DNA of 64,000 nt. Source: an uncultured Ignavibacteriaceae bacterium (GTDB lineage Bacteria > Bacteroidota > Ignavibacteria > Ignavibacteriales > Ignavibacteriaceae). The DNA is taken from NCBI GenBank assembly GCA_963739915.1, contig CAVUCF010000027.1:6017-70016 (forward strand), read 5' to 3'. The notes beneath the pieces are model-generated. The model ran no database searches and was not told where the DNA came from. It saw nothing but the letters and a program-made list of their open reading frames with translations. The position numbers and the translations under genes are program-made. Positions 1,114 through 63,293 of the stretch are shown here, one piece after another. Numbering within the stretch: position 1 is the first letter of the stretch; each line of letters opens with the position of its first letter.

Positions 1114-2104
1114 ATGAAAACGATATCTATTTTATTTCTCTTTCTTTTATCAATGCTGAATTGCGGGATTCAGGCAAGAGGAAATTCAGATCCTCTTCCA
1201 TCCTGGAATGAAGGACCAACTAAAGAAGCAATAATAAATTTTGTAAACGAAGTTACCACTGAGGGCAGTCCCAACTTTGTTCCAGAATATCTACGGATTG
1301 CAACTTTTGATAATGACGGTACTCTCTGGTCTGAAATGCCGTATTATTTCCAGCTTCAATTTGCTCTTGATAGAATTAAAGCAATGGCACCCGGATCACC
1401 CGGAATGGAAGACTACTCAGCCATTCAAAGCTGTTCTTGAAAATGATTTGAAGACTGTGATGGAATCCGGTATGAAAGGACTGATGGAAATAATAATGAC
1501 TACGCATGCAGGAATGACAACTCTTGAATTTGAACAGATTGTTACAGATTGGATAAATACTGCAAAGCATCCGAAAACAGGAAAACTCTACAAAGACATG
1601 GTTTTTCAGCCAATGCTTGAGCTTCTTGATTACCTTAGAGCAAATGGTTTCAAGACTTACATTGTTTCAGGAGGCGGAATTGAATTTATGAGACCATGGA
1701 CTGAACAAGTTTATGGTGTACCAGCAGAACAGGTAATCGGAAGCAGCATCAAAGTTAAATACGAGATGACAGATGCTGGTCCCGTTTTAATGAGATTGCC
1801 CGAAATTAATTTTATTGATGATAAAGATGGTAAGCCAGTTGCTATAAATCAGTATATCGGAAAAAGACCACTAGCTGCATTCGGAAATTCTGATGGCGAT
1901 CTTGAGATGCTGCAATGGACTGCTGCAGGAGATGGTAAAAGATTAATGTTGATTATTCACCACACTGACGCTGAAAGAGAATGGGCTTACGACAGAAAAT
2001 CACAAATCGGACAGCTCGACAAAGCTCTTGATGCAGCAATTCAAAATGGCTGGATTGTAGTAGATATGAAAAATGATTGGAAAGTAATTTATCCGGAGAA
2101 ATAA
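1114..2104 (+). pseudogene. secreted HAD-superfamily hydrolase/phosphatase, split by one frameshift near 1390-1393
   Basis: Signal peptide plus the HAD motif I FDNDGTLW are in ORF 1114-1440. The rest (SGGGIEFMRPW, GNSDGDLEML) is in ORF 1277-2104. Deleting one C of gcaCCCgga gives the continuous reading ...DRIKAMAPDHPEWKTTQPFKAVL. Confidence 0.8.
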
Positions 2105-2293
2105 AATTTAAAGCAATCCTTTTAACTAAAAGCCTTAAATAAAGATAGAAATTTTTTTACCAATATGGATTTTGTCAGATAATATTTCTGAACGATAATT
2201 AAGCTCTCTAACCTTGTTTTTATTTCAGAAGTTATTCTATAAGTTTAATTAAGTTATTAATTTACTTGCATATAAATAATCAAAGGAGCAAAA

Positions 2294-2836
2294 ATGAAAA
2301 AGGCTATATTGACAAAAGCATTTATAATTATTGCATTAATTACATCAAGTGCATTTGCACAGGGCTTTTACCTGGGTGCTGGCATTGGGAATACTTTTTA
2401 TAGTTCAGAAGTAGAAGATGCCGTTAACCAGGCACAAGAAATAAGCGAGAACTCAACAGCCTGGAAAGTTTTTGCAGGATATCATTTTAACAAATTTCTT
2501 GGTGTTGAAGGCGGATACAGAAGTTTCGGCAACATCAGTACTGATATCAGCACTGTTACATATGAAAGTAAAACAGCAGGCTGGGATGTTGAAGCACTTG
2601 GATTGTATCAGATTTCAATTATAGATCTTTTTGGTAAAGCCGGAGTTATGTTTTCATCTACGGATGAGTCGACTGGCGGCGAAAGCACAGATGACACCAG
2701 CACTAATTTCTTGTGGGGTCTTGGTGTCGGCGCTCACTTTGGTCCAGTCGGTGCCAGATTGGAATGGGAGTCAATCGTAGTAGATGGTCCAACTAATTTA
2801 TCAATGGTTAGCTTAAGCGGAACATTCGGATTTTAA
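2294..2836 (+). CDS. outer-membrane beta-barrel protein (OmpA-like barrel / porin family)
   Basis: Signal peptide ending AFA-QG, alternating amphipathic beta-strands rich in G/Y/F, and a C-terminal ...LSGTFGF ending in Phe. An AGGAG RBS lies upstream. Confidence 0.75.
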   Translation: MKKAILTKAFIIIALITSSAFAQGFYLGAGIGNTFYSSEVEDAVNQAQEISENSTAWKVFAGYHFNKFLGVEGGYRSFGNISTDISTVTYESKTAGWDVEALGLYQISIIDLFGKAGVMFSSTDESTGGESTDDTSTNFLWGLGVGAHFGPVGARLEWESIVVDGPTNLSMVSLSGTFGF

Positions 2837-2919
2837 TTATCACCGGTTATCGTATTGATTGCATTACATCGGGTGTCACGATCCGACCGCGAAACAAAAG
2901 TTTAGAAATTTATTAGAAA

Positions 2920-2950
2920 GGCGTTGAAGTAATTCAGCGCCTATTTGTTT
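2920..2950 (+). terminator. rho-independent terminator after the OMP gene
   Basis: GGCGTTGAA-GTAA-TTCAGCGCC hairpin followed by TATTTGTTTT. The stem sequence is nearly identical to the terminator at 1048-1076. Confidence 0.6.
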
Positions 2951-3207
2951 TAAAAGAATTTGTAATTATTGCTTTATTTTTGTTCTAAGCAATTTCAGGA
3001 TTAAATAAACACTCTCTACCTTTGCGAATGCTTAGTTGTTTTGTTATGTGACGACTCGTCCAAAGCTGCACAGTTAAAAGGAAAGCAGAAGAAAAACCAG
3101 ATGAATTTAGGTGTTTGAGAAATTATTGAATGAGTGATTTACCCGTAATTAAATTCAGAATAAAATTCTATATTTGAAAAAAAATCATAATAAATTAGGA
3201 ATACTCA

Positions 3208-3999
3208 ATGTTTGAATACTTTTTTGATCTTCCTTTAATAATTACAGGACCGGCGATTATAGGAATATTGTGTTTGTTTGCAATTGGTGGATTGTGGTTC
3301 GTCCGCCGTCACGTGCATTCTCAAATGAACATTGAAACACATGATTCTCATTTCTCCGGTGCTATGGTTCATTCGGTCATGATATTTTATGGTCTCGCTG
3401 CAGCGCTGATGGCTGTGAACGTATCAGAGACTTACACCGATGTTTCAAAAATTGTTGAGGATGAGGCTACTGCCCTGACAGTACTATATAGAGATGTAAA
3501 TGGTTATCCCGAACCAATCCGATCTGAACTACAAAAAGTACTTCATGATTACACCCAATACGTCATCAATGAAGCCTGGCCATCTCAAAGCAAAGGACAA
3601 TTGGCATTTGGTGGTGTGCAACGTATGAACCGCTTCCAGTCTATACTGTTCGTGTTCGAACCGGTGACTGAGGGACAGAAACTTCTGCATGGTGAAACCA
3701 TAAACGCCTATAACCAATTGATCAAAGCCCGTCGATTACGAATTGATGCGGTGGATACCGGTTTGCCGGCAGTAATGTGGGCAGTACTTATTTTAGGTGC
3801 CTTCATTGCCCTAACCGCTTCCTTCTTTTTCAAAGTGGAAGATGTGCGTTTGCATGGAATTCAGGTTCTGCTTTTAGCGGTATTTATCGGACTAAACATT
3901 TTTGTGATCTTAGCGCTGGATCGACCGTTTCGTGGCGACCTCGGGCTATCACCCAAACCTTATCAATTAGTTTACGATCAATTGATGAAAGTTAAATAA
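3208..3999 (+). CDS. membrane protein of unknown function (possibly DUF4239-like)
   Basis: 263 aa. One N-terminal TM helix, a second after about 50 aa, and two C-terminal TM helices flank a soluble middle region. The family assignment is from memory only. Confidence 0.6.
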   Translation: MFEYFFDLPLIITGPAIIGILCLFAIGGLWFVRRHVHSQMNIETHDSHFSGAMVHSVMIFYGLAAALMAVNVSETYTDVSKIVEDEATALTVLYRDVNGYPEPIRSELQKVLHDYTQYVINEAWPSQSKGQLAFGGVQRMNRFQSILFVFEPVTEGQKLLHGETINAYNQLIKARRLRIDAVDTGLPAVMWAVLILGAFIALTASFFFKVEDVRLHGIQVLLLAVFIGLNIFVILALDRPFRGDLGLSPKPYQLVYDQLMKVK

Positions 4000-4257
4000 A
4001 GTAACGATTGAAACATTTCCCAAAAAGAAATAATAGGTAACCTAGAAGCAACGATCTTCAATTTAACTGCCGGGATCACTTCCAGTCAGACAGGGTGACC
4101 GTCGTTTTTTTATGATAAATTCGGGCAGCTTGTTGATTTTCATACAGTTATGATATTAGAAAATATTTTTGTATCGTTAGCTAACGATAGTGCTTTATTT
4201 TATTAATTTTATCTTTTTGAGTTAATTCTTAATACATAAACAAAAAACAATATTATT

Positions 4258-4749
4258 ATGAAAACCAAAATTCTAATAGGCGCATCATTATTATGTTTAA
4301 TATCATTGCTATCCTCCTGTAATACAAATAAAACGGAATCCGTTCCAGTAGTAATTGATAAAGAACAAATAAAAAAAGAAATTCAAGCCAGGGAAAATGA
4401 ATTTGCTGAGATATACAATTCCGGAATAGCAAAATCTATTGGCTATTATGCTGATGATGCAATAACCTTTACTCAAAACAGGAAACCATTAGTAGGCAAA
4501 GCAGCAATTGTAAAATATTTGTTTGATGACTTAAGCTCATCTACTGAGTCCAATAAAATTTCGTTTACAACTAACGAAGTTTTTGTATCAAATGATGGAA
4601 ACCAGGTGGTTGAGATTGGCTATTATAAAGTAGTTGACTCTACTAATACTGCCGTTAATACAGGAAATTATATGGTTCTGTTTGAAAAACGAAACGGCAA
4701 ATATGTCAGCGTTAGGGATATGAGTGCTTCTGACATGCCACTTGAATAA
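4258..4749 (+). CDS. lipoprotein with SnoaL-like / DUF4440 (NTF2-fold) domain
   Basis: Lipobox LLSSC at residues 17-21. The pattern ...ENEFAEIYNSG...YYADDAITF...GNYMVLFEKRNGKYVSVRDM is typical of DUF4440/SnoaL-like proteins. Confidence 0.7.
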   Translation: MKTKILIGASLLCLISLLSSCNTNKTESVPVVIDKEQIKKEIQARENEFAEIYNSGIAKSIGYYADDAITFTQNRKPLVGKAAIVKYLFDDLSSSTESNKISFTTNEVFVSNDGNQVVEIGYYKVVDSTNTAVNTGNYMVLFEKRNGKYVSVRDMSASDMPLE

Positions 4750-4772
4750 AAAGACAAATAAAATGTTTTTAA

Positions 4773-4806
4773 AAGAGGTTGTCCTTTTTTAGGGTAGCCT
4801 CTTTTT
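4773..4806. terminator. bidirectional hairpin terminator between convergent genes
   Basis: AAGAGGTTGTCC-TTTTTTA-GGGTAGCCTCTT. An A-run lies on the left and a T-run on the right, so it can terminate both 4258-4749(+) and 4838-5893(-). Confidence 0.65.
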
Positions 4807-4837
4807 ATTGTATAATTTTAGAATAAAATACCGTTAA

Positions 4838-5893
4838 TTATCTTCTTCTACCACCACTTCTGGAACCGCCGCTGCCATAATTTCCACCACCCCTTGAACG
4901 GGATGATCCCATTGACTGATTAGTTGTTGGCTTCTTCGTTGTTGTCGAGGGTGCTTTTGACTTATTGTTTGAAACGTTATTCTTATTATTTGAAACGTTG
5001 TTCTTATTGTTTGAAACGTTGCTCTTGTTATTTGAAACGTTGTTCTTATTATTTGAAACGTTGTTCTTGTTATTTGAAACGTTGTTCTTGTTATTTGAAA
5101 CGTTATTCCTATTATAATTACCGTTAGCCTTATTATGGTTTACAGTATTAGAACTATTCCTGGAATTATTGTAATTATTAAAATTATTTGTATTATGAAC
5201 CACAACTGTACCGCCATATCCACCACCATGATATCCGCCATGATGATAATAATTGTTATGACGATAAACGCCAATCGCCACTACAGCAAATGCTCTGAAA
5301 TAAGGCGGAGGATATGAGTAAGTATATGGAGGATAATAGGGCACATACACAGGTGAATACACATATTGAACGATTGGAGCTGATTCGACTACTACAACAG
5401 TTGTTGACGCCGTACTATTTCCAGCCACTGGCTCGGTACCTGTATACCCGGGATTAGGAGTAACTGGGGGCTTAGGTTCAATAACATAATCTTTGCCATA
5501 CAAATCTACATCTCCCACAATTTGCATAGTAACTTTGTCATTTTTATCCTTCGATAGTAATATGACCGCAACGTCCTGTGTCTCTGTTTCCGTTACGTCA
5601 TCCTGGAGTATAAATGTAAAATCATTTTCATTTTGCTTTGTAATAACCTTAATGAAATCAACTTTTCCATCCAGATTTAAATCCAGGTTATTGATTCCAG
5701 TTTTTTCATCATTTAACGATTTTTCAAAATCTTCTATGGTCTTAGACTTTTGAAAAAGATCTAATACGGCATAAAGATCCAGGTTATCGCCTGGCAATCC
5801 TAATGATGTTGTGTCATTCTCTGTTTGAGAGAAAACAGGAGAACTTAACAAGCTCATCGATAGTACTAAAGATGCTAAAAAACTATTTTTCAT
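4838..5893 (-). CDS. secreted low-complexity protein with heptad (NNVSNNK)x7 repeat and Gly/Arg-rich tail
   Basis: Signal peptide, then a globular N-domain (DLNLDGKVDFIKV...). This is followed by a Tyr/Pro-rich stretch, an Asn-rich tandem heptad repeat and a C-terminal GGGNYGSGGSRSGGRRR tail. Confidence 0.7.
   Translation of the reverse strand: MKNSFLASLVLSMSLLSSPVFSQTENDTTSLGLPGDNLDLYAVLDLFQKSKTIEDFEKSLNDEKTGINNLDLNLDGKVDFIKVITKQNENDFTFILQDDVTETETQDVAVILLSKDKNDKVTMQIVGDVDLYGKDYVIEPKPPVTPNPGYTGTEPVAGNSTASTTVVVVESAPIVQYVYSPVYVPYYPPYTYSYPPPYFRAFAVVAIGVYRHNNYYHHGGYHGGGYGGTVVVHNTNNFNNYNNSRNSSNTVNHNKANGNYNRNNVSNNKNNVSNNKNNVSNNKNNVSNNKSNVSNNKNNVSNNKNNVSNNKSKAPSTTTKKPTTNQSMGSSRSRGGGNYGSGGSRSGGRRR
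4960..5116 (-). repeat. in-frame 21-bp tandem repeat, about 7.5 copies
   Basis: TTTGAAACGTT recurs at 4968, 4989, 5010, 5031, 5052, 5073 and 5094, an exact 21-nt period. Copies differ by 1-3 substitutions. Confidence 0.95.
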
Positions 5894-6236
5894 GGCGCTA
5901 TTGTCTTATGAATTGGTTGTCAAAGTTTACACAAAATATCATCATTAATCAACAAAATATTTTTGTCAACACATCGGTCATTCAGTATTTTTACTGTGTA
6001 ATCAGCCAATAATTATTGCTATGCCGGAACGTACTACGAAAAAGCTGATAGTGGATACACTGTTGTGGAAAAGCTTTCCGAAGGAGGAGGAGAAGTAAAG
6101 ATCGGCGATGTTAGTTATGTAAAATATGGAGAAACATATTACCAGCCAATCGTACAGGATGGTAAAAATATGTATGAAGTTGTAAATGTTGAACCTGCTA
6201 AAGATTAAATAACAAATAATTATAAAAAGTATATCT

Positions 6237-6767
6237 ATGAATAAAACTCTGATGTTTTTGAAGAAAGAAATTTTAGAACTTCTTCCTCCTACTATTTTTT
6301 TCTTTGTGGTTTTTCAGATCATTACTTTTGTAAGAGGCTTACTCGCTAAGGAATATGGAATGACTTTTTCTTCTACTACATCTGCTATTATTGGTGCACT
6401 TATAGTAGGGAAATCAATTTTATTAGTTGATGCCTTACCAATGTTAAAATGGTTTCATCAGTCAAGACTAATTTATACTATTTTATGGCGAATATTTTTT
6501 TATCTATTGATCGTAGTGCTTTTTCAATTTATAGAAGATCTAATCCCGTTGATCTCAAAATTCGAATCACTTCCACTTGCATTTGAAAATTACTTCGAAA
6601 AAATGAATTGGGATCATTATTGGGCAATTCACATAATTCTATCGTTGTTTATAATTATCTATACTTTAATTACTGCCGTCGTTGAAGCAGTTGGTCGAAA
6701 TGAATTCTTCAATATATTTTTTGGCAAGAATAATAAAACCAAAAATAAGACTATTACTAAAGATTAA
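6237..6767 (+). CDS. integral membrane protein, unknown function
   Basis: 176 aa with 4 predicted TM helices. A strong terminator follows immediately. Confidence 0.6.
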   Translation: MNKTLMFLKKEILELLPPTIFFFVVFQIITFVRGLLAKEYGMTFSSTTSAIIGALIVGKSILLVDALPMLKWFHQSRLIYTILWRIFFYLLIVVLFQFIEDLIPLISKFESLPLAFENYFEKMNWDHYWAIHIILSLFIIIYTLITAVVEAVGRNEFFNIFFGKNNKTKNKTITKD

Positions 6768-6777
6768 GTTAGTTCCC

Positions 6778-6813
6778 GGGTGTCACGGTCGGACCGTGAC
6801 ACCCTTTATTTTT
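6778..6813 (+). terminator. rho-independent terminator (perfect 13-bp palindrome arms)
   Basis: GGGTGTCACGGTC-G-GACCGTGACACCC followed by TTTATTTTT. Confidence 0.8.
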
Positions 6814-6862
6814 AATGTCAGTTCAATTGAGTTTGTAAGTAAATTTCTCTAACTCATTTCTC

Positions 6863-7354
6863 TTAGTCAAAATCAAAATTAAAGAATGGGAAAACTGGCA
6901 GGAAACCACCGCTACCAATAATATTTATTAATCCCAGCTGAAGACCTTTAAGAGTCGCTGCGTAATTTACAATGGAAAATTGAAGACCGTTGAAATGCCC
7001 GCTATGATAGTTAACCCAGGAAGTTTGTAAACCCTCAAAATTTCCTCCGGAAATATTTATGAATGCTGACTGCCAACCTGTAAAGCCGCCATCGGTCACA
7101 TTAACGCCGCCCCACTGAACACCGACTTCTTTCCCAGTTGTTACATTTACCAGGCCTAAATCAAATCCTGTAACATTTGCATTTTTTGAATAGATAAGAT
7201 TTAATCTCACACCACTAATCGATTCATTATTTGGTACAATCTGAATGGGGTCGAAAAGTGCTAGCTGGAATGGGCTGCCTTGCGAAAGTATTGTTGAGTT
7301 GAAGCTTAAAAAGAGTGCTAAGAACAGAAAAGTGGATTTAAGAGCTCGTTGCAT
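6863..7354 (-). CDS. secreted repeat protein, unknown function (G-x-Q/N-x-G-x-x-N type repeats)
   Basis: Signal peptide, then repeated units GFDLGLVNV / GVQWGGVNV / GLQTSWVNY / GLQFSIVNY / GLQLGLINI. Confidence 0.6.
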   Translation of the reverse strand: MQRALKSTFLFLALFLSFNSTILSQGSPFQLALFDPIQIVPNNESISGVRLNLIYSKNANVTGFDLGLVNVTTGKEVGVQWGGVNVTDGGFTGWQSAFINISGGNFEGLQTSWVNYHSGHFNGLQFSIVNYAATLKGLQLGLINIIGSGGFLPVFPFFNFDFD

Positions 7355-7418
7355 TTTTGTATCCTTTCTGAAAAAAAGAGTTTGTGTTTACGACGTAAAA
7401 TTAATATTTTTTTATTAA

Positions 7419-7892
7419 TTATAAATCATTCAGCAATTTAAATCTTACTCTTAGCACCCCTTCATTAAAATCAGTGGAAATAATTTTAAAAGTTCCTATC
7501 TCATTTGTATTCGAAACATGCAATCCGCTGCATGGACAGGCATCATATTCGCCAATCTTAATTACCCTTATTTTAGTACCGGCATCTTCCGGCAATTTTG
7601 AAAGATTAAATTTCACTTCTGCATCTTCTATGGAATAGAATTCTTCACTTACAGCTAAATCTTGTCCAATAACCTTGTTTACTTTTAATTCTATTTCTTC
7701 AATCTCTGCCTGTGTTAAATCCCTGCTAAGGTGATAATCGCATTTAGATTTTTTCTTTTCAATATGATTTGTAAATGATCTTCCGCAGTTAAACATTCGT
7801 ACCATTGTCTGGTTCAATATATGTTCTGCCGAATGCATCTGTGGATGGTATTGTTTGTTTGATTTAATTTCCTGATTATTTTCTATTTCCAT
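7419..7892 (-). CDS. alanyl-tRNA editing protein, AlaX-S type (tRNA_SAD domain)
   Basis: 157 aa. It carries the zinc motifs HxxxH (HSAEHIL) and CxxxH (CSGLHV) of the Ala/Thr-tRNA synthetase second additional domain. Confidence 0.8.
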   Translation of the reverse strand: MEIENNQEIKSNKQYHPQMHSAEHILNQTMVRMFNCGRSFTNHIEKKKSKCDYHLSRDLTQAEIEEIELKVNKVIGQDLAVSEEFYSIEDAEVKFNLSKLPEDAGTKIRVIKIGEYDACPCSGLHVSNTNEIGTFKIISTDFNEGVLRVRFKLLNDL

Positions 7893-7999
7893 AACAGTCC
7901 ATAATACGACTTTGAATAGTTTTTCCTTTTAGGTTAAAAATTGATATACTAGTAACTCAAATCGGGCGTAAAAATACAAAAATAGAATGGAATAAATTT

Positions 8000-8956
8000 A
8001 TGAAGAGCAAGAGGTCTGGCATTTACTTTTTTATACTTGGTGCGTTAGCGATAGTAACCATAATTATTCTTGTTATCACACTTCAACTAAACGGCAAAAT
8101 AACCACGGCAGGCGAAACTGCTGATGAAGATTTTCCTCAAGGATATAAAATAACTTCACCTGAAATTCCCAATTATCTTGAATTTGCGGGTGAAAAAATT
8201 CCAACTGAAAACTTTGAAGTTTTCGAGAGAATGGAAAGAGAATTTCTTTCGAACACTTACTGGCACTCGGCTACTGTCCTTGCCATCAAAAGAGCTAACA
8301 GGTGGTTTCCTGTTATTGAACCTATACTTAAAAAGAATAACATCCCTGATGATTTTAAATATCTGGCTGTCGCTGAAAGTAATCTGGATAATGTCGTCTC
8401 CCCTGCTGGTGCAACAGGATTCTGGCAATTTATGGAAGGAACTGGAATAAAATATGGATTAGAAATAAACAACCAGATAGATGAAAGATACCAAGTAGAA
8501 AAATCAACCGAAGCTGCTTGCAAATATTTGAAAGATTCATATGAAATGTTTGGGAACTGGACTCTATCTGCGGCATCATACAATATGGGTCAGGATGGAA
8601 TAAAGTTGCAGATGGAAAGACAAAAAGTAAAAAATTATTTCAATCTTGTAATTAATTCGGAGACCTCAAGATTCGTTGCCAGGATTGTTTCTCTTAAATA
8701 CATTCTTCAATATCCTGAGAGATATGGGTTTGATATTAAAGAAGAACAAAAATATAAGCCACTTGAGTATTATGAAGTAAACCTGGATAGCTCAGTTGCA
8801 GATTTTGCTGACTATGCAAAAAGCCTGGGTGTAAATTATTTCATCTTGAAGATGTACAATCCGTGGCTTCGTGAAAACTACCTAAGCAACAAAACCAAAC
8901 AAGTTTATACAATTAAACTTCCGAAAGAAGGAAGTATAGAAATTCTAAAGGACTAA
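8000..8956 (+). CDS. membrane-anchored lytic transglycosylase (SLT domain)
   Basis: N-terminal TM anchor and the family-1 SLT motifs AVAESNLD...SPAGATGFWQFM...AASYNMG. Confidence 0.8.
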   Translation: MKSKRSGIYFFILGALAIVTIIILVITLQLNGKITTAGETADEDFPQGYKITSPEIPNYLEFAGEKIPTENFEVFERMEREFLSNTYWHSATVLAIKRANRWFPVIEPILKKNNIPDDFKYLAVAESNLDNVVSPAGATGFWQFMEGTGIKYGLEINNQIDERYQVEKSTEAACKYLKDSYEMFGNWTLSAASYNMGQDGIKLQMERQKVKNYFNLVINSETSRFVARIVSLKYILQYPERYGFDIKEEQKYKPLEYYEVNLDSSVADFADYAKSLGVNYFILKMYNPWLRENYLSNKTKQVYTIKLPKEGSIEILKD

Positions 8957-8997
8957 TGGAGAATTGCTGATTCTAATTAGTGAAATTAAAAAACAGT

Positions 8998-9306
8998 TTA
9001 TTTAGGTTCCCAGTCAACTCCATCGCAAGGAACATAATTTTCTGTTGGGTGTTTATCATATTTGATACAAAGAACTGCAGACCGATCAAAACTTTTGCAG
9101 CTTGTGCAAAGAGAAGATTCTATAACTTTTTTATTGCGTTCCTCAAACCATCTGTAACTTACCATCGCAGGATGAATAATAAGCACATAAACAGCAGCAA
9201 TACTTATTATCCACCAAAGCTGTTCATCAACCTGAGATTTTATTACCCATAAACCAGTGATGGTAACCGCAGCACGCATTATTGTCCAGAAAACCACTTC
9301 GCCCAT
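8998..9306 (-). CDS. small membrane protein with Cys-rich C-terminus, unknown function
   Basis: 102 aa with two TM helices followed by CTSC...C...C. Preferred over the overlapping + strand ORF 8980-9252, which looks like low-complexity noise. Confidence 0.45.
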   Translation of the reverse strand: MGEVVFWTIMRAAVTITGLWVIKSQVDEQLWWIISIAAVYVLIIHPAMVSYRWFEERNKKVIESSLCTSCKSFDRSAVLCIKYDKHPTENYVPCDGVDWEPK

Positions 9307-9520
9307 TACAAACTCAACATTTTGACTAAATTTTAATTAAAGACTAAAATAGTGCCAACAGAAAAATGCCTTTTAATATAACTAAAATAATAACTCTGAA
9401 AGTATTCCAACGGGGAGTCAACTTGTAAATTTTACATTAATGTATTAATATTGATGGGAGAGAAACTAAAGTTATGGAACGATTGCTCTTTGTAACTATT
9501 TATAAGAAAAGAAGATAGAG

Positions 9521-9592
9521 TGAGCGCGGGTGGCTTCGAACCACCGACCCTCTGCTTAAAAGGCAGATGCTCTACCCCTGAGCTACGCGCCC
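9521..9592 (-). tRNA. tRNA-Lys (anticodon UUU)
   Basis: The reverse complement is GGGCGCGTAGCTCAGGGGTAGAGCATCTGCCTTTTAAGCAGAGGGTCGGTGGTTCGAAGCCACCCGCGCTCA. It folds into a cloverleaf with a 7-bp acceptor stem (one G.U), anticodon loop CTTTTAA and T-loop TTCGAAG. CCA is not encoded. Confidence 0.95.
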
Positions 9593-9678
9593 TTTCAAAA
9601 AAGGAATGCAAATATAGTAAGTTGAGGATTCTAATACAAAATAAAGATTTTAACACATAAAATCGATTGGCGGTAAAA

Positions 9679-11046
9679 ATGGCTTCCCTTAAAAATTCCA
9701 AAATTCTTGTCTGTGATGATGACGAAACTCTATGCTATCTGCTGAAGGAGCAGTTATTAGAGGAAGGATTTGAAGTTGATGCAGTTTATGATGGTAAGTA
9801 TGCGATAGAAGCAATCAAAAGGTCAAATTACGATGTCCTTTTGCTTGATTTAAATATGAAAGAGGTATCAGGCGAGGACGTACTCAAATTTGTAAAAGAC
9901 TACAGTGCATCTTTGCAGGTAATTGTTCTTTCGGGACAAGGAGAAATGAGGAAAGCTATAGATTGTATAAAAGCAGGTGCCTACGATTTTATTCCAAAGC
10001 CATATGAATTTGAGCAGTTACTTGTAACATTAAGCAGAGCTCTTGAACACAAAGATCTTCTGGTAAAAACTGAAATTTTAACTAAAGAGATAAGTAAAAA
10101 GGGTTCTGAAAATATTATTGGAAATAGTGCTGAATTAAAAAGAGTACTTAACCTGGCAAATAAAGCAGCTATCTCCGATTCAAATATTCTCATCGAGGGA
10201 GAAACCGGAACCGGTAAAGAACTTTTAGCCGAATTCATACATAAACACTCCGCCCGGAAAGACAAACCTTTTGTAGTCATTAATTGTGCTTCGTTGCCCG
10301 ATCAATTAATTGAGAGCGAGCTCTTCGGTCACGAAAGGGGTGCTTTCACAGATGCAAAAAACTCTAAACAGGGATTAGTTGAAATAGCTCATGGCGGGTC
10401 TCTTTTTCTGGATGAAATTGGGGAACTCAGTCTTACGCTTCAGCCAAAACTTTTAAGATTTCTGGAGAATGGAGAATACAGACGTATCGGTGGTATAACT
10501 TCATTAACTTCCAATGTTAGAGTAATAGGAGCCACAAACAGAAACTTACTCGAAGAGGCAGATAATAAAAATTTCCGAAAGGATTTGTTATTCAGGCTAA
10601 ATGTTATCACACTTACGATTCCTCCTTTGCGAGACAGAAGGGAAGATATTTTGCTGCTTGCAAACCATTTTATAAAAGAAAAATCTCCGATACGTTCACC
10701 TAAACATCTTTCTAACGAAGCTGAAGAATTACTTTTAGGTTATTCATTCAACGGTAACATCCGGGAGCTTGATCATATTATTGAAAGAGCAATAATTTTT
10801 GCTGAGGGAGAAATAATTTATCCGGAAGATTTGAACCTGCCTCAGTCATATCAAGTACAAACCAGGAAGCACTCTGAGATTGAACACTCCGAAGAAATTT
10901 TAAGTATGGAAGAACTTGAACGATGGCATATTAAGAAAGTACTCGATAGAAACCGATGGGATAGAACGCAGACTGCTAATCAACTTGGTATAAGCCCAAA
11001 AACTCTATATACCAAAATTAAAAAATATGAATTAAAGCCCGTTTAA
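9679..11046 (+). CDS. sigma54-dependent response regulator (NtrC/PilR-type: REC + AAA+ + Fis-type HTH)
   Basis: REC domain (LLLDLNM), Walker A GETGTGKE, the GAFTDA sigma54-contact loop, and a C-terminal HTH QTANQLGISPKTLYTKIKK. An alternative TTG start lies at 9667. Confidence 0.9.
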   Translation: MASLKNSKILVCDDDETLCYLLKEQLLEEGFEVDAVYDGKYAIEAIKRSNYDVLLLDLNMKEVSGEDVLKFVKDYSASLQVIVLSGQGEMRKAIDCIKAGAYDFIPKPYEFEQLLVTLSRALEHKDLLVKTEILTKEISKKGSENIIGNSAELKRVLNLANKAAISDSNILIEGETGTGKELLAEFIHKHSARKDKPFVVINCASLPDQLIESELFGHERGAFTDAKNSKQGLVEIAHGGSLFLDEIGELSLTLQPKLLRFLENGEYRRIGGITSLTSNVRVIGATNRNLLEEADNKNFRKDLLFRLNVITLTIPPLRDRREDILLLANHFIKEKSPIRSPKHLSNEAEELLLGYSFNGNIRELDHIIERAIIFAEGEIIYPEDLNLPQSYQVQTRKHSEIEHSEEILSMEELERWHIKKVLDRNRWDRTQTANQLGISPKTLYTKIKKYELKPV

Positions 11047-11052
11047 TTTTAA

Positions 11053-13038
11053 ATGCCTTCGAGCATAATTGCCAAATATTCACCCGAAATAATTTTCGGT
11101 GAAAATACCCCGGTTGCAATTACCGATAGTCATCTAAAAATAATTTGGTTCAGCAAAAGCTTTAAAGAATATTTTGCCGGGAACAAATTAAAAGGGAAAA
11201 CACTCGCCAGCCTATTAAATTCAGCCGGAATAGATAAGGACACTGAAGAGGTTTATAAAAAACCGACAATTCGTCAGTTACCCGAAATAAATAAAGAGCT
11301 GCACATAACTCCACTTTTTGCGCAAAACAAAAAAGATAAACCTGACAACTATAAATTAGAACTTCTTGACTCAGCAATAGTATCCCAACCCAAAGCAATA
11401 AATGACAAGTCGAGCAAAGATAATATAAACTTTCGAAATGTGTTTCAGGATATCTTGACATTACTAGTAAAAGAAAATTCGATTGATAAGCTTTCTACTG
11501 AAATATTATCGAAGTCAGTTAACCTAACCAAAAGCGATCTTGGAATAATTACATTCTTAATTGAAAATTCAGAAACAGAATTTAAATATCTTGACCCGCA
11601 GAATATTGTTTCAAATAAATCAGATATTGAAAAAACCGTTAAATCTGATTTCAAGTTTATAAGCAAGTGGTTGATGTTAAATAAATCATCCCTGGTGGCA
11701 GCAAACCAGAAAAATAACCTGGGCAGAAATCTTGCATCTTCTATAGGCTGTGATAATATTCTAGTTGCACCTTGTATCTTTGATGAAAAACTTATTGCAA
11801 CTTTGATTGTAGGAAAATTAAAAGATGAATTTACAATCGATGAAATAAAACTTTTAGAGGAATTCTCGACCCTCCTTACATTCATCATAAGCAACATTAG
11901 AACACGCGATTTAAATACAGCGCTTGAAAGCAGGTTATTACAAGCACAGAAGCTTGAAACGATCGGGAAATTATCAAGCGGAATGGCGCACGATTTTGGC
12001 AACCTTCTTTCCAGCATCTTCGGAAGTTTAAACTTATTAAGAAAGCGAGTCGATCAAACAGATAACGTTCAAAAACTGATTGACAATATTGAAAACTGTT
12101 CGGTAAGAGCCCGGGATTTAACAAAAGGATTGCTCTCATTCGGAAAGCCAACTCCCAAGAGAAAGGAACTTGTAAAACCACACCAGCTATTGAGTGAGAT
12201 TATTAAAATTGTAAACCAAACCTTCCCCAAAGCAATAACACTTACTGAAAAAATTGATACTTCTCTTTATGATATTGTTGGCAATGGGACGGAAATCAAT
12301 CAAGTAATTCTCAATTTGTGTGTTAATGCAAAAGAAGCCATCAAAGAAAGAGGAAATATTAATATTATTGCGAAGAACATAACGATAGACGAGAATAACA
12401 TTTCTTTTCTGCCGCTTTTACAAATCGGGAATTATGTAAGGTTTTCTGTAACAGATGATGGTGTTGGTATAGATGAAAAACACCTGACTAAAATATTTGA
12501 TCCATATTTTTCAACGAAGGTGAAAGATACCGGCTCTGGTTTAGGTTTATATGTTTCCTATGGAATAATAAAAGCACACAATGGATTTATAGATGTGACA
12601 AGTAAGCCCGGAGCGGGAACTACTTTTGATGTTTACATTCCTGCCTTCGAACCTCCTAAAGAAAAGAAAACTGATCCGTCCGAGAAAATTATTTTACTTG
12701 CAGATGACGAACCAATGCTGGGAGATCTTCTCGCTGAACTTCTTGAAACAAGTGGATATTCAGTAATAAAAGTAGCATCCGGAAAGGAAGCACTTAAAGT
12801 TCTTACTGAAGAAATTAAAGTCGATCTTGCTATTATTGATTATAATATGCCGGGGTTATCAGGTCTTGAAACAATTGCAGAGATAAGAAAACTAAATCTG
12901 GATATCCCGATTATTTTATCATCAGGAAGTTTGTGGACAAATCAGGAATCAGAATTTTTAAAATACCAAATCAACGGCCAGCTGAACAAGCCTTATGAAT
13001 TTGAAGCGATGCTGGCTACTATCAGGAAATTCGTTTAA
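11053..13038 (+). CDS. hybrid sensor histidine kinase (N-terminal sensory/GAF-like region + HisKA + HATPase + REC)
   Basis: H-box SSGMAHDFGNLL, N-box LNLCVNAKEA, G-boxes DDGVGI and GSGLGL, and a C-terminal receiver ILLADDE...DLAIIDYNMPG...KP. Confidence 0.9.
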   Translation: MPSSIIAKYSPEIIFGENTPVAITDSHLKIIWFSKSFKEYFAGNKLKGKTLASLLNSAGIDKDTEEVYKKPTIRQLPEINKELHITPLFAQNKKDKPDNYKLELLDSAIVSQPKAINDKSSKDNINFRNVFQDILTLLVKENSIDKLSTEILSKSVNLTKSDLGIITFLIENSETEFKYLDPQNIVSNKSDIEKTVKSDFKFISKWLMLNKSSLVAANQKNNLGRNLASSIGCDNILVAPCIFDEKLIATLIVGKLKDEFTIDEIKLLEEFSTLLTFIISNIRTRDLNTALESRLLQAQKLETIGKLSSGMAHDFGNLLSSIFGSLNLLRKRVDQTDNVQKLIDNIENCSVRARDLTKGLLSFGKPTPKRKELVKPHQLLSEIIKIVNQTFPKAITLTEKIDTSLYDIVGNGTEINQVILNLCVNAKEAIKERGNINIIAKNITIDENNISFLPLLQIGNYVRFSVTDDGVGIDEKHLTKIFDPYFSTKVKDTGSGLGLYVSYGIIKAHNGFIDVTSKPGAGTTFDVYIPAFEPPKEKKTDPSEKIILLADDEPMLGDLLAELLETSGYSVIKVASGKEALKVLTEEIKVDLAIIDYNMPGLSGLETIAEIRKLNLDIPIILSSGSLWTNQESEFLKYQINGQLNKPYEFEAMLATIRKFV

Positions 13039-13709
13039 CCTTCCATTTCACTACTATCCACCTTAATCATCTTAACATCTTTAGCGTAATCAGATAGTTC
13101 CGGTTTGGTTATAGAATTTAATTTGTTCAGAACATCGCTGATATCTTTTATTGCAGCATCAATGTATTTAACACGACTTAAAATTGATTCCCTGGTGAAT
13201 CCTTCTTTTTCAAGTTCTTTCTTAATTGCCGCAGATGAAAGACTGAGCAACGTGAGGGGTTGTTTAATTTTATGATTTGCTGTTACTATCGTGGCAATGA
13301 ACGTTGTTCGTTTTTCTACTTCCAGAAGCTGTTGATTAGCTTCAGAAAGTTTAAGAGCCGATTTTACTCTTGCAATCAACTCAATACGATTAAAAGGTTT
13401 CTTTATATAATCGAAGGCGCCAGATTCAAGGCCTTCTTTAGTATCCTCTGCACCAGCTTTTGCAGTTACAAGAATGATTGGAATGTGCTTTGTCTTTTCA
13501 TCGTTAACAAGAGTTTTACAGACATCAAGCCCGCTCATATCCGGCATCATCACATCCAACAAAATAAGATCGGGTAAAGTAGAATACGCCTTTTCCATTC
13601 CATCGTTGCCGCCGTAAGCTGTAATTACTTCATACCCTTCCTGAGCCAGCCGGTCCTGCAGGATAAATATATTTTCGGGAAGATCATCAATGACCAGAAT
13701 TTTTTTCAT
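13035..13709 (-). CDS. response regulator: REC domain fused to a stand-alone HisKA/DHp-like helix pair (no ATPase domain)
   Basis: REC (ILVIDD...LILLDVMMPDMSG...KP) followed by TIVTANHKIKQPLTLLS, which resembles an H-box (compare SHELRTPL). The protein ends 90 aa later with no N/G boxes. Confidence 0.8.
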   Translation of the reverse strand: MKKILVIDDLPENIFILQDRLAQEGYEVITAYGGNDGMEKAYSTLPDLILLDVMMPDMSGLDVCKTLVNDEKTKHIPIILVTAKAGAEDTKEGLESGAFDYIKKPFNRIELIARVKSALKLSEANQQLLEVEKRTTFIATIVTANHKIKQPLTLLSLSSAAIKKELEKEGFTRESILSRVKYIDAAIKDISDVLNKLNSITKPELSDYAKDVKMIKVDSSEMEG

Positions 13710-13710
13710 T

Positions 13711-17256: not shown

Positions 17257-17279
17257 TTATTTTGCTTTGAAGGAATTAA

Positions 17280-17645: not shown

Positions 17646-17647
17646 TA

Positions 17648-51781: not shown

Positions 51782-52574
51782 ATGCTAACCCTTACAGAAA
51801 TTAATATTTACCCCATCAAATCGCTCGGAGGAATAAGTCTTCAATCGTCAGTAGTAGAAGAACGTGGGTTGAAGTATGACAGAAGATGGGTTTTGGTTGA
51901 TGAATCAAAAACTTTCTTTACACAGAGAGATTTTCCTGAAATGGCATTGATAAAAGTTTAGTAGAGAATAATGGATTAAAACTTCAACATAAAACAAAAA
52001 ATGTTGAACCAGTTTTTATTCCGTTTGAATTTGAGCATTCAGTAAAAGACAAAGTTGTTATTTGGGATGATATGGTTACGGTGAGTTTTATAACTCAGAA
52101 ATTGATGGGTGGTTCTCAGATATTATCGTAATTAAATGCCATCTCGTAAAAATGCCTGAATCAACTATGCGGGTAGTTGACAAAACTTATGCGAAGAATA
52201 AAATTGTAAGCTTTGCTGATGGATATCCGTTTTTGATAATCGGACAGTCATCACTTGATGATCTTAATTCAAGAATGAAGTTTCCCTGCCAATGAACCGA
52301 TTTCGTACGAATTTTGTATTTACTGGCGGAAAACCCTTCGAAGAAGATGATTGGAAAAAATTCAAGATTGGTGAAATAAAGTTTCGAACTGTAAAACCAT
52401 GTGCACGATGTGTTATAACAACAACTGACCAGGAAACCGCAGAACGAGTTCACGAACCATTACTAACACTATCAAAGTACAGAAAGATTAGATAATAAAG
52501 TTATGTTCGGGATGAATCTTGTCTGCGAATCGATTGGTCAAGTGAAAGTGGGAGATATGATAAATCTTTTGTAA
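51782..52574 (+). pseudogene. MOSC domain protein, about four frameshifts
   Basis: MLTLTEINIYPIKSLGG..., ...SFADGYPFLIIGQSSLDDLN..., MNRFRTNFVFTGG..FEEDDW..., VKPCARCVITT. The frame changes near 51955, 52085, 52290 and 52488. Confidence 0.75.
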
Positions 52575-52625
52575 GTGAAATTAATTTAAGATAAATATTT
52601 TAAGTTTAAAGAAGAAAGGAAAACA

Positions 52626-52790
52626 ATGAGTAGAAAAGTTGAAGTCGCAGGAATAATGGGCCCGATTTGGTTTATGGGCTGGTTGTTTACAATCGGGTTT
52701 CTTAAGCTTACTTTTTTCCAGGGATTGCTTGCCTTGATCATCTGGCCTTATTATATAGGTGATTTTCTTTCTAAGATCCCTATTCAGTAA
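52626..52790 (+). CDS. small membrane protein (54 aa), unknown function
   Basis: It is below the ORF-track cutoff. AGGAAAACA-ATG RBS, two hydrophobic helices (IMGPIWFMGWLFTIGFL, LLALIIWPYYIG), and intact among decayed neighbours. Confidence 0.4.
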   Translation: MSRKVEVAGIMGPIWFMGWLFTIGFLKLTFFQGLLALIIWPYYIGDFLSKIPIQ

Positions 52791-52826
52791 AGAGTATGCT
52801 TTTTTAAAAACTACCTGGAGGTAAAG

Positions 52827-53520
52827 ATGAAAACAATTGGAATGATCGGTGGAACCGGCTGGCTATCAACACTTGAGTATTACCGTATCATTAACCAGGA
52901 AACCAACAAAAGACTAGGTGGATTTAAATTCAGCAAAGATCATGCTTTCATCATTCAACTACGCAGAAATTGATTTGTTAAACAAAAAAGAAGATCACGC
53001 CGGGGTTTACAAATTAGTACTGGATGCAGCACAAAAATTAAAAAAATGTTCTGTTGATTGTATTATGCTCTGTGCAAATACGCTGCATCAATACGTTGAT
53101 GATCTGGAAAAAGAAACGAATTTGAAAATCGTACACATTGCGGATGCAACAGCAAAAGAAATAAAGAGAAAAGGATTATCAAAGATCGGTCTGCTTGGAA
53201 CTAGAGTTCACAATGGAAATGGATTTTTATACTAAACGAATTGAAGGAGTCAGGAATTAAATCAATCGTTCCGGATAAGCCTGAACGATTATTTATACAT
53301 AATGCAATTATGAATGAACTTCTTAAAGGAAGAATTTAAAGCAGAAACAAAAGCAAAGTTCCTGAAGATTATTTCAGATTTGGAAAAGAATGGTGCGCAA
53401 GGAATAGTTTTGGGCTGCACAGAAATACCTCTTCTAATTAAACAAAAAGATACTCACCTCCCTGTTTTTGACACCCTTGAAATTCATGCTAAAGCTGCTG
53501 TCGACTTCGCCCTGATATAA
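52827..53520 (+). pseudogene. aspartate/glutamate racemase family protein, about four frameshifts
   Basis: MKTIGMIGGTGWLSTLEYYRIINQE..., CIMLCANTLH, GLLGTR[shift]FTMEMDFYTKR..., IVLGCTEIPLLI. The first shift is in the T3 run at 52923-52925. Confidence 0.75.
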
Positions 53521-53580: not shown

Positions 53581-53832
53581 TTGATCTCTTGGATTATATT
53601 CCTTCAAGAATTAAAATATGTATTAATTCTTTATACTGATGGTTTAACGGAAGCTTCGGTTAATGAAATTGAGTATGGTGAAGGGAGGCTAAAAAAACAA
53701 CTGTTAAAATCTGGAACTCGTTCTGCCCAGAATATTATAAATGAATTAATCGTTGATCATAAAAGATTCCTAAAGGATTCTCCGCGCTTTGGCGATGCTA
53801 CTATTGCAATATTGAAAAAAATCCAAAACTAA
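53581..53832 (+). pseudogene. C-terminal fragment of a PP2C/SpoIIE-type phosphatase
   Basis: LILYTDGLTEA...EYGEGRLKK...GDATIAILKK is the last 65 aa or so of a SpoIIE domain. No catalytic N-terminal part lies upstream. Confidence 0.55.
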
Positions 53833-57127: not shown

Positions 57128-57153
57128 CAAGTTATTTCATAATTAAATTCTGA

Positions 57154-57184: not shown

Positions 57185-57435
57185 AATCTGATTTCTTCAA
57201 TCTGCTATAGTTATGATACTGAAAAATCTTTATCTAACTGAAACGGTCAATAACGAATTTCCAATAAATAAAGTAAATCTTAATAAAATTCCTTCTGTAA
57301 TTCAGTAGAACTTTGGGCTGACCTCAAGTGTTGTAGAAAAAACAATCAGTCACTTTAAAGAGCTGAAAGATATTTACGGCTAAATTTCATTAAATTGCTC
57401 AATAAAAACCTCTCAGTTTTACTCAAAAGAACTCA

Positions 57436-59342
57436 ATGAAGAATATCATTATCAACTGTTTCTTGCTCTGTTTCATTTTTGGTTTGAATAAAACCAACGC
57501 CTGGGTTTATCCTGAACATCGGGATATAACCTTAATAGCAATTGAAAAACTCCCATCGACTTACCGAGCACAACTCGATACACTCTGGTCGCAAGCCAGA
57601 ATTGGTTATGAATTTAGGTTATCTCCTGTTGTAATTGATCCGGAACTATTAACAAATCCTCAGTTATATAGATTATGCGGCGTGGCCAGCCATTGCTGGC
57701 GATCATTCCTGCTCTGCTGAAAATATGTTACATAATATTCTTCAAACTGAATGGATAATGCAGGTTGCTGATATTACTGCACAATTAAAGATTGATCTTG
57801 CATTTGCTAAGGAAAGAGATGACCGGATTAATGCTCTAAGAGAATCCGATTTACGTTTACAGGGGGCTGATCCTGACTATGCAACACGGGCTGGATCTAA
57901 TAATGTACATTTCCTTCTGGCACTTCCTGATGTGAATATGACTTCATTAAATTATGTTTTATCATGTTTAATTGAAGGTGCTGAATTGAACGCAATCAGT
58001 GCATATGCATGGTATCACTACAGTGCTTTATCCAAAGCATCGATGCTGGTAAATCAAAACCTAACTCAGGAGGAACGTTCAGCAATTATCCTTTCTGCAC
58101 TTGCTGATGAAGCATTTGCGATACATTTTTTAGAAGATACCTTTGCAGCTGGTCACGTTGCAGGTACCTGGGGAGATGCTTCACAAAGAAAAGGGACACA
58201 CGATTATTACAACGAATTTGGTTTAAGGACCAGCCTCTGGAATGGAGAAAAGGTTGTATTAACAGGTGATGCCTGGATGCGAACCGAAGATGCTGAAAGA
58301 GCTGCTTATACGGTCCGATTAAGCATTGAACAATTAATTGATGCAACTAAAGGTAAATATCCTACCATCATATATAAGGGAGAGGAAAAGACTCCGACCC
58401 CTGGAAATTTTAATGTTTGTAAAAATAACTACGTGCCTGCTCACGAAAAGAATCTGGATTTTGAAGCGCCGTTAAGTGAAGTATTCACCAAAACTCCTGT
58501 TCCTGCTCTTGAAGAAGGATTGGGTGACCTCCCACGTTTTAGAGCAGAAGTTGGTCCATTTGTTGGCTTTTCTCCTGCTCTCCGAGGTTCACTAATCTTT
58601 GGGGCATTCGGTCTTGATCAAACTACTTTGGGTGCCGTTGGTGGACTTGAAATTGCGATACGTGTTGGTGTTGGGTTGGATGGTGTATTAAATGAATCCG
58701 GCGATGGATTAATATTTCTTGGAGTTGGCTGGCGACAGGATGGTTCTTCTTCAACAGGAGTAGTCGATGCAGAAGATCTTGCAAGTTACGGAAATTTATT
58801 GGCTGCTATTCCCGGACGTTCTGCATTTAATTTCAGATTTAGAATTCCATATTATGTAATACCAGGAGATTTATTAATTGCAGGACCCATTTTATTTTTT
58901 CTCGACAAAGAGTTATTAACTGATATGGGTGTGACTGCTGTTAATGGCGGACTTATCGGTTGGGAAGCTGGTATTGAAACTTCCTTTGGACGATTTCAGT
59001 TTGTACTTGGAAGAGAAATTGCAGTATATTTCTTCGGTCGGACTAAAGAAAAGGATGCCTTGTTTAACTTTTCACCAGACCAGAACGGTATGAAAATCGA
59101 TTTACATACTTTCTTACGAATCAACACAATTTGAATTTCCATTTTTAGAATACAGGCCATTCAGATCCTTTTCAACTGATCAGAGCTCTTCTCTGCTTGT
59201 ACAATTTTACGGAGGATTTGACGTGCCGAGTAACGTTCAGGATAGATCCACTCTTGAAGAAAAAACTTCATACGTACCTTCGCTAAAAACTGTTTGGTAT
59301 ATTGGTGCAAGATTAGTTTTTGATTGGAGACATTATTTTTAA
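57436..59342 (+). pseudogene. secreted protein of unknown function (N-terminal Zn-phospholipase-C/P1-nuclease-like motifs; beta-rich C-terminal half ending in Phe), two frameshifts
   Basis: Signal peptide, then W-VYPEH. After a shift near 57665 the sequence reads ...IDYAAWPAIAGDHSCSAENMLHN..., followed by HFLEDTFAAGH. A shift at 59090-59132 extends it to ...VWYIGARLVFDWRHYF*. Confidence 0.6.
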
Positions 59343-61548: not shown

Positions 61549-61808
61549 TTGTATGAAAGCAGATCTTCTTGAGTTCCATCGGGTCCTCTGATATTCCCTC
61601 TGTCGATTTACAAATAACCTCACACTAAGGCCAGGTAGGGGTCTCATTCTTATATGAAAATCGGATTCTTAAAAATTTTTTTGTAGAAAAATATTCATGC
61701 TATTAGCGGATCTAACAACCTTGTTTTCTATTAGGTGAGACTTCGCTGATTGAGGCAGCCAGAAAACCCAGAACGTCAACTGGAATTATCAAAACCATTT
61801 CAATAATT

Positions 61809-63293
61809 TTATAGAACTAACTGTTCTAACCTTTCAAGTATTCTCACCATACCAAAAGTATCCAGCTTACAATACTCTAATAACTGCTGCTTAATTTCTG
61901 CAATGAACATTAAATCAGTCTGTGTCTGCAAACTTTCATAAGCTATAGAAGCTAATCCGCCCTCATTTATTTCAAGATTATCGTAGCTTAATTCAGGAAC
62001 AAGTGCCGGGAGTACTGCTTTAATTGAGTAGGAACCTTTCATCTCTGGTGCGTAATAATATTTTTTCTGGAATGGAATCATCAAATCCTTAATCCTTAAA
62101 ATGAATTTTTCAATTTCATCAGCATATCTCAGGAAAGTCTCTTGCAATTTCATTTAGCCTTGTTACTTCAAATGTTCTGTTATAAACAAGCACATCGCCT
62201 TTTCCCTTTGTTACTTTCAGCAAGGTCTCAATAAATTTTATACGAGGGTCTTCACCGGGTTCTGCAAGGAATTCAAAGTGTGATGGCTCGCTCTTCTTAT
62301 CTTGCTTAAGGAATGACTGAATATTGAAAAGGAATCTGCTGATATGGTTTTGAATTATTAAATAAAGGAACAGCTGGTTGAAAGGATTCAAAATCCATAA
62401 AGTATAGTGGGTATTTCAAATCAGATAGAAAGTTTATGATTGCTTTTTTGTCAATCACCGGTTTGTTGGTTCTATAAACTTCAAGTTGAAGCTTGTTATT
62501 TTTATTTAGATGGATAGTCTTCCGGCACATCATTTAGGTTTATTATTCCATTATGATAAAGTTCATATTTTTTTGAAAGGTGCATTCCTGAAAAATCAAA
62601 AATCGAATTATCAGGAATATGTTTCCTACAGTAATTGAAAAATCCGCAAGTATACGGGTTGTAGCAGTGTTCACCGATATCTATATGGGGCATCTGCTTC
62701 TTCAGCAAGATCTTTTTAAATCTATTAACGTTTTCTTTAACAGATTTCTGAAATGGCAATATGAACCTTAGCACCGACTCAGTTGTAAACAATTCGTGTA
62801 AATCTACATCTCCCTTCCGTATGTACTGATTATTAATATAAATGATTGAAAAATCTTTTACCCTAATTCCAAGGCTTGAAATAACATAATACTGCAGAGC
62901 TGCATCATTCAGATAAGTCTCCGAGACTGAAGTAGAACTCTTAACTTCAAAAATTCTAGCGCCCCCCTTCTCCATCACAACTACATCTGCAATTGAAAGA
63001 ACTTCGTTGTAAATAAACGCAGCTTCATAAATTACTTTCACACCATTGTCAATTAACTCCCTAGTTTTTCTAATTGCCTTTTCATAATCTGGTGGATCTC
63101 CCTCTGCAGCAATTATTCCACCAGGAAATAGATTGTGCGCAAGTTCACCTACATTTGTTCCTCTTTTGAAAATAGCTTTCTGCATATCCGATAGTTCGTC
63201 CATCTCATTATAATGATACTTATACAGATAGAGATGTTTTTCACATTGGAGTCCTTTAATAAAAGAAGATTTACTCAGAAGATGCGACGCCAT
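61809..63293 (-). pseudogene. DUF2779-type PD-(D/E)xK (Cas4-like) nuclease domain protein, three frameshifts
   Basis: N-terminal Cys (GLQCEKHLY), the nuclease core ...ADVVVMEKGGARIFEVKSS..., and the Cys cluster CYNPYTCGFFNYC. Four overlapping ORFs read through, with shifts near 62510, 62315 and 62130. Confidence 0.7.

Follow-up and report, generated by a model that had tools for sequence, protein, structure and literature searches.

We analyzed a 64,000-nucleotide stretch of DNA from an uncultured Ignavibacteriaceae bacterium (G000:C27:6017-70016, hereafter called the window), in which conserved genes, among them the aspartyl-tRNA synthetase (AspRS) gene aspS, can be read through only by changing frame. 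The genome to which it belongs, G000, has a size of 3.31 Mb in 38 contigs with 36% GC, a completeness of 96.7%, and a contamination of 4.9%. Near-identical proteins in the database bear names that point to Ignavibacteria/Ignavibacteriaceae. The window was compared with the syntenic DNA of G004, a complete one-contig relative at ~76 to 80% nucleotide identity, of three few-contig metagenome-assembled genomes (MAGs; G009, G011, and G012), and of two many-contig MAGs (G006 and G007, with 170 to 230 contigs). Frameshifts were detected by tblastn searches in which intact orthologues of G004, G009, G007, G011, and G012 served as queries and were placed at the base level in per-gene MAFFT nucleotide alignments of up to six genomes.

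We located 36 frame-changing indels in 16 genes (Table 1). A preliminary description, made by reading the window by itself, had listed these 16 genes, and in all of them the frame changes no more than a few bases away from the positions claimed. Its count of about 30 shifts rose to 36 on recount, and the nucleoside phosphorylase, which is indeed split, carries two shifts (30581 and 30597-98) instead of the single one reported. Searches of the intact orthologues against Pfam confirmed Secretin, T2SSE, porphobilinogen deaminase, HemN, DUF2779, HAD, and Por_Secre_tail as well as PYNP, Cytochrom_C_asm, AKR, Mut7-C, MOSC, and Asp_Glu_race; the HAD and Por_Secre_tail assignments were made on G009 orthologues. 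For the type IX secretion system (T9SS) cargo gene, the indels were placed by tblastn and by a pairwise alignment in which G009, with a nucleotide identity of 82%, was the sole comparator.

Table 1. Genes with frame-changing indels and other features of the window
Feature	Position	Strand	Indels and remarks
HAD-family hydrolase	1114..2104	+	one extra base ~1393, moving the reading from frame 1 into frame 2; tblastn (two paralogues of G009), pairwise alignment
Clean stretch, 16.5 kb	1394..17905		includes tRNA-Lys and, at 11.0-17.6 kb, the signalling genes
tRNA-Lys(UUU)	9520..9592	-	conserved flanks
Secretin	17648..18900	-	extra bases 17906 and 18540-18543; three tblastn frames; private in six-genome alignment
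pilB/T2SSE ATPase	22766..24557	-	extra base 23865-23866; tblastn, alignment
aspS, sole AspRS of the genome	27461..29228	-	extra base 27667-27672
Pyrimidine-nucleoside phosphorylase (PYNP)	29389..30692	+	two extra C, 30581 and 30598
ccsA-like cytochrome c assembly protein	31718..32543	+	extra base 31747-31750
hemC	33843..34797	+	extra base 34455-34458
12-nt tandem duplication in hemC	34238..34249		in frame, private
Lipoprotein	34794..35418	+	extra base 35215; ACT/AGT merged to AGCT
hemN	38325..39703	+	missing base 38737; extra bases 39134, 39231, and ~39545
T9SS cargo gene	39709..40800	-	indels 39716, 39828 (2 nt), 40281, 40317, 40361, 40457 (14 nt), and 40609
Aldo-keto reductase (AKR)	47386..48358	+	extra base 47507-47510
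Mut7-C protein	49754..50501	+	extra G at 49876
MOSC protein	51782..52575	+	missing bases 51958, 52079, and 52276; extra base 52486-52490
54-aa open reading frame	52600..52820		between MOSC and racemase
Asp/Glu racemase	52827..53520	+	four extra bases, 52923-26, 53204-06, 53240-50, and 53322-25
SpoIIE/PP2C C-terminal fragment	53581..53832		83 aa
Secreted protein	57436..59342	+	extra bases 57661-64 and 59092
DUF2779 protein	61809..63293	-	extra bases 62131, 62314, and 62510

Privacy of the indels and type of assembly

When the aspS fragment was searched against protein sequences, it led to two close contigs, L049 and L050, of the ENA assembly ERZ25039503, both of which encode full-length AspRS proteins of 588 amino acids (aa) that are 99% identical. 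L049 (96.8% nucleotide identity to the window) and L050 (96.0%) together span positions 25985 to 34649, and a third close contig, L051 of ERZ25039459 (96.2% identical), spans positions 46517 to 61776, so that 24 kb of the window is covered by the three. Within this part, none of the window's frameshifts was present in L049, L050, or L051. Intact gene calls were found in this set for aspS (588 aa), PYNP, AKR, Mut7-C, MOSC (264 aa in L051), and the secreted protein, which is also intact in G012 and G007 (634 to 635 aa in L051 and these two genomes). L049 also has an intact ccsA-like gene and, in its partial copy of hemC, shows no break at the shift site, and all four racemase insertions of the window are missing from L051. 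Each close contig harbors a private extra base of its own, in hemA (L049), the ccsA-like gene (L050), and the racemase gene (L051), and the three contigs thus have errors of this kind elsewhere.

We then counted private frameshifting indels in the alignments of the shared genes. The window had 22 in 37.9 kb of aligned sequence, 17 insertions and 5 deletions. G012 had 15 (13 insertions, 36.6 kb), G011 had 13 (10 insertions, 37.0 kb), and G009 had 5, all of them insertions (31.4 kb), while the complete G004 and the many-contig G006 and G007 had essentially none. The frameshifting singletons initially scored in G004 and G006 were compensating indels in variable stretches, or fell in the tRNA region, and are not real breaks. 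A survey of aspS gave the same division. The gene is split in the few-contig MAGs G001, G011, and G012, at positions other than that of the window, and is whole in G004, in G009, and in five many-contig MAGs (G002, G003, G005, G006, and G010); the G007 copy is cut by a contig end. Including the further breaks seen in hemN (G009) and AKR (G011 and G012), four few-contig MAGs of the genus besides G000 carry frame breaks, namely, G001, G009, G011, and G012 (loci L013-L015, L036-L037, and L040-L046).

The breaks are not confined to the window. We compared the open reading frames (ORFs) of at least 150 aa from twenty 20-kb samples of G004 (400 kb) with all of G000. Over 59 kb of coding sequence conserved between the two, the frame changed 39 times (a rate given as 0.22 per kb), with 31 of the 152 conserved genes, or about 20%, being split in G000. 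At 33 of the 39 frame changes, G000 had an extra base (binomial p = 1.4e-5). rpoB is split over two frames and rpoC is intact. No second AspRS was found in G000, where two weak paralogue matches score under the family cut-off, so that the split aspS is the only AspRS gene of the genome and the earlier claim that essential genes are affected holds. Frame breaks are therefore genome-wide, reach essential single-copy genes, and are tied to the type of assembly.

Probable allele doubling and local divergence

At most insertion sites that could be compared with other haplotypes, the inserted base was the alternative allele of an adjacent polymorphic base (Table 2). At 27669, 34455, and 47509, deleting different single bases turned the 19-mer of the window into two natural alleles, exactly. 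Six further sites (30581, 30597, 31747, 35215, 39231, and 39545) were near-exact, with one to three unrelated mismatches. In PYNP, each of the two extra C residues is the L050 allele set beside the L049 allele. When one-base insertions were simulated at random in L049 or L050, the two-allele pattern arose in 3.4% of the trials and the exact pattern in 0.7%. By comparison, all four coding insertions of the window that are covered by both contigs show the pattern (p ~1e-6), and the window reads at these sites as a supersequence of two natural alleles.

Table 2. Sites at which the window combines two alleles
Position	Gene	First allele	Second allele	Window
27669	aspS	L049 ATCAAAAATCC	L050 ATCAGAAAACC	ATCAGAAAATCC
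30581	PYNP	L049 TAT ATT	L050 TTC ATT	TATCATT
30598	PYNP	L049 AAG TAAA	L050 CGC TAAA	AAGCTAAA
34455	hemC	L049 CTT	G012, G009 TTA	CTTA
47509	AKR	L051 GAGACA	G012 GAAGCA	GAAGACA

Two extra bases recur at the same site in separate assemblies. The window and G009 share the extra base at ~39545 of hemN, where both read GGA-CTTG-AGC. Other members of the genus encode this leucine by CTT or TTG, and 14 of the 14 other alignable genomes are one base shorter, which fits a merging of the CTT and TTG alleles to CTTG. Similarly, a TTT/TTC polymorphism underlies the extra base common to AKR of G011 and G012 (TTT{C}AT). Allele doubling at polymorphic codons would thus account for the recurrence of both.

From position 26419 to 34184 (~26.4 to 34.2 kb), 218 L049-like and 146 L050-like sites are finely interspersed along the window, with only 45 private sites, and in places one type gives way to the other within a few bases, e.g., at 31747. 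Such a mosaic has the look of a mixed-read consensus rather than of natural recombination. The L049 and L050 haplotypes were themselves assembled separately, as neighboring contigs (contig_52349 and contig_52350) in ERZ25039503. Judging from these sequences, co-occurring Ignavibacteriaceae strains at about 95 to 97% identity are indicated.

The 36 events are unevenly distributed, as had been stated in the preliminary description. In 2-kb bins, their variance-to-mean ratio was 2.9 (p = 1e-7). The interval 38.7-40.6 kb holds eleven events and 51.95-53.33 kb eight, which bears out the earlier figure of at least eight within 51.8-53.5 kb, and only one lies in the first 17.9 kb. The absence of shifts from 13.0 to 17.6 kb was likewise confirmed, although its extent had been understated, the clean stretch running from 1394 to 17905. 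At the mean rate of the window, the probability of finding no event in these 16.5 kb is ~1e-4. Every gene in 7.4-17.6 kb gave single-frame tblastn high-scoring segment pairs; the 2.1-7.4 kb part was judged clean from ORF sizes only, with no orthologue compared.

Indel density tracked the local density of single-nucleotide polymorphisms (SNPs), with Spearman coefficients of 0.64 against L051 (p = 1e-4) and 0.76 against L049 (p = 6e-4). The density of errors thus follows the divergence of the haplotypes. Indeed, divergence from L051 is 6.5% in the hotspot at 51.5-53.5 kb, and the neighboring 53.5-57.5 kb is 99.6% identical to this contig and carries no shift. For a gene of the clean 11-13 kb region, a database search returned no relative at 96 to 99% identity (best match, 91%), which agrees with, without proving, the absence of a second haplotype there. 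SNP density thus accounts for the hotspots at 38.7-40.6 and 51.9-53.3 kb and for the nearly clean first 18 kb. The hotspots are best taken for the parts in which the merged strains are most different, and not for pseudogene clusters, with the T9SS cargo gene as a possible exception.

Homopolymers, in which the preliminary description had placed several of the shifts, do not account for them. Only 17 of 50 insertions extend the adjacent base and just 8 yield runs of at least three, and the A6 run at 39238 has the same length in all relatives. Homopolymer slippage was rejected as the cause on these run-length counts and the unchanged A6 run. A preference for inserted G or C, which came from a first pairwise alignment with G009, vanished in the multi-genome alignments (24 C/G versus 26 A/T). 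No methylation-like or shifty motif was found around the 50 insertions.

Some further features were observed on the way. An apparent extra shift at ~9650, in a small conserved ORF, was spurious, the region being a tRNA-Lys gene. The ORF had been listed as an 89-aa minus-strand frame at 9432-9752 whose conservation in the genus reaches 95%, and what underlies it is the tRNA gene with its conserved flanks. The 12-nucleotide duplication of hemC (GATCATTAAGAA) is absent from L049 and from five relatives in the genus; it could be a real duplication of four residues or another consensus artifact. The 54-aa ORF between the MOSC and racemase genes is also called in L051 (positions 6109 to 6273). Next to the racemase gene lies the 83-aa C-terminal fragment of a SpoIIE/PP2C protein. 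L051 has an ORF of the same length, with a weak SpoIIE match, at the same position, and because this stub is shared, it is a true remnant of a gene rather than a product of the assembly.

Origin of the frame breaks

Taken together, the comparisons make it very probable that the indels arose as errors in the consensus of a metagenome assembly of the long-read style that collapsed at least two closely related populations. Frameshifts due to residual indels are already described for long-read MAGs, above all for bins with less than about 40-fold coverage (PMC9262707; doi 10.1101/2021.08.23.457338). In such an assembly, reads of two or more related co-occurring Ignavibacteriaceae populations would collapse into one sequence. 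Where the haplotypes have neighboring substitutions or use synonymous codons that overlap (such as Leu CTT versus TTA/TTG, or a T/C SNP), the consensus step could align the alleles with offset gaps and retain bases of both, and the sequence would thereby gain a base (allele doubling) or, in fewer cases, lose one. We infer the software step, presumably a partial-order-alignment type of consensus or polishing, and likewise the sequencing platform. The aspS, rpoB, hemC, hemN, and other listed genes are almost certainly intact in the organism itself. The preliminary description had favored sequencing or assembly indel error over a loss of aspS, and this is strongly supported by indels that are private, genome-wide, and free of any footprint of decay.

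Several points weigh against the collapse of related populations as the explanation. All of the evidence is a comparison of assembled sequences. No second allele was present among the compared haplotypes at 17906, 23866, and 49876, and five one-base deletions are not directly accounted for by doubling. The correlation of indels with SNPs is also expected under real divergence. Finally, the T9SS cargo gene had a single comparator, G009, and its indels may be either an artifact or real decay.

The first alternative is ordinary random long-read consensus error, arising from low coverage alone without a mixture of strains. Such error would explain the genome-wide spread, the excess of insertions, and the few sites without a second allele. 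It also has precedents, since the raw reads of PacBio CLR (continuous long reads) are dominated by insertion errors (doi 10.1101/2021.08.23.457338) and bins of low coverage are known to need polishing (PMC9262707). However, random error predicts the two-allele pattern at 3.4% of the sites, and it was seen at 4 of the 4 that could be tested. Neither does it predict that the same extra base recurs across assemblies, as in hemN of the window and G009 and in AKR of G011 and G012, nor the strong clustering of the events and their dependence on SNP density. We therefore consider random error alone unlikely.

The second alternative is that the mutations are genuine, in the form of mass recent pseudogenization or at least of real pseudogenes at the MOSC, racemase, and T9SS cargo loci. 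The events do cluster in accessory-type genes (38.7-40.6 kb and 51.9-53.3 kb), the adjacent SpoIIE fragment is a real remnant that L051 shares, and the T9SS cargo gene is unusually divergent, with about 70% amino acid identity to G009. Yet the codon alignments of the window carry no trace of gene death. After removal of the private indels, real genes contained no in-frame stop, against 22 frameshifts. The window-specific ratio of nonsynonymous to synonymous changes (N/S) was 0.77 in intact genes and, in broken genes, 0.74 upstream and 0.75 downstream of the first shift, and selection downstream of the shifts is thus not relaxed. Private substitutions were not raised in broken genes, and hemN, with its four shifts, had the fewest. 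Inactivation has thus left no evolutionary footprint, and the mix of nonsense and frameshift mutations, the relaxed dN/dS, and the sparing of essential genes that mark pseudogenes and genome decay are all lacking.

Moreover, aspS and rpoB, essential single-copy genes, are among those broken. Bacterial mutation has a deletional bias, and the insertion bias found here is opposed to it. The allele-doubling pattern also speaks against genuine decay, as does the absence of the indels from relatives that are 96 to 97% identical. This includes the dense loci at 51.8-53.5 kb, which the preliminary description had thought might be genuine pseudogenes. MOSC is intact in L051, which also lacks the four racemase insertions, and the SNP density is high in this region, so that the suggestion is not upheld. 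Genuine decay is, in our estimate, very unlikely.

A variant of this alternative would take the doubled-allele insertions as real in the DNA of a lineage, arising in vivo when diverged alleles that reside together undergo error-prone recombination or repair. It would imply a natural population with hundreds of very recent +1 lesions, some of them in essential genes, and on the present sequences we give it hardly any weight. Least credible of all is programmed recoding, in which the ribosome would regain the frame at these sites through a +1 shift or quadruplet decoding: most shifts are +1, the downstream frames are under purifying selection, and one hemN site is common to two species-level genomes, but the 50 insertions have no common motif, neither site nor motif is conserved among relatives, the positions differing even at 96 to 97% identity, which effectively refutes recoding, and the hemN site was rejected as a conserved recoding site, being absent from the 14 other alignable genomes of the genus and explained by the merging of CTT and TTG.

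Consequences and comparison with known systems

The frame breaks are almost certainly a technical artifact with a recognizable cause, devoid of biological novelty or significance. They nevertheless matter for the use of the genome. With about one gene in five falsely split, pseudogenes, decay hotspots, gene graveyards, and unusually short proteins reported from G000 are suspect, and the same caution on gene integrity extends to the sister few-contig MAGs G001, G009, G011, and G012. The signature can be checked without reads, in that the inserted base is the alternative allele of its neighbor and the indels track SNP density, and it may help to flag similar sequence windows.

Large-scale gene interruption is known from reductive decay with mass pseudogenization, as in Mycobacterium leprae and recent symbionts, and programmed +1 frameshifting exists, for instance, in prfB. 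As in M. leprae, a large fraction of the genes is interrupted here. Unlike in reductive decay, there are no nonsense mutations, selection is kept, essential genes are broken, and the changes are absent from relatives at 96 to 97% identity. As in prfB, a +1 shift is needed to restore the frame. Unlike in prfB, the sites are not conserved, a shifty motif is lacking, and dozens of unrelated genes are concerned.

A close likeness is to long-read MAGs with residual indels, as recognized by IDEEL-type truncation (Sereika et al. 2022, PMC9262707; proovframe preprint, doi 10.1101/2021.08.23.457338). There, too, many genes are split by one-base indels throughout the genome, and only highly contiguous assemblies are affected, the orthologues in short-read or finished genomes being intact. 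The classic description of Nanopore sequence is one of homopolymer errors, whereas only 8 of the 50 insertions lie in runs of at least three here. The window further departs from such MAGs in that insertions outnumber deletions by about 4-5 to 1 and that the extra base usually equals the other allele of an adjacent polymorphic base. It also resembles the collapsed-haplotype chimeras of metagenomes, which likewise are mosaics of two haplotypes with errors concentrated where the haplotypes differ. Such chimeras are usually described as mosaics of SNPs, and the window adds to this picture length errors that break the reading frame.

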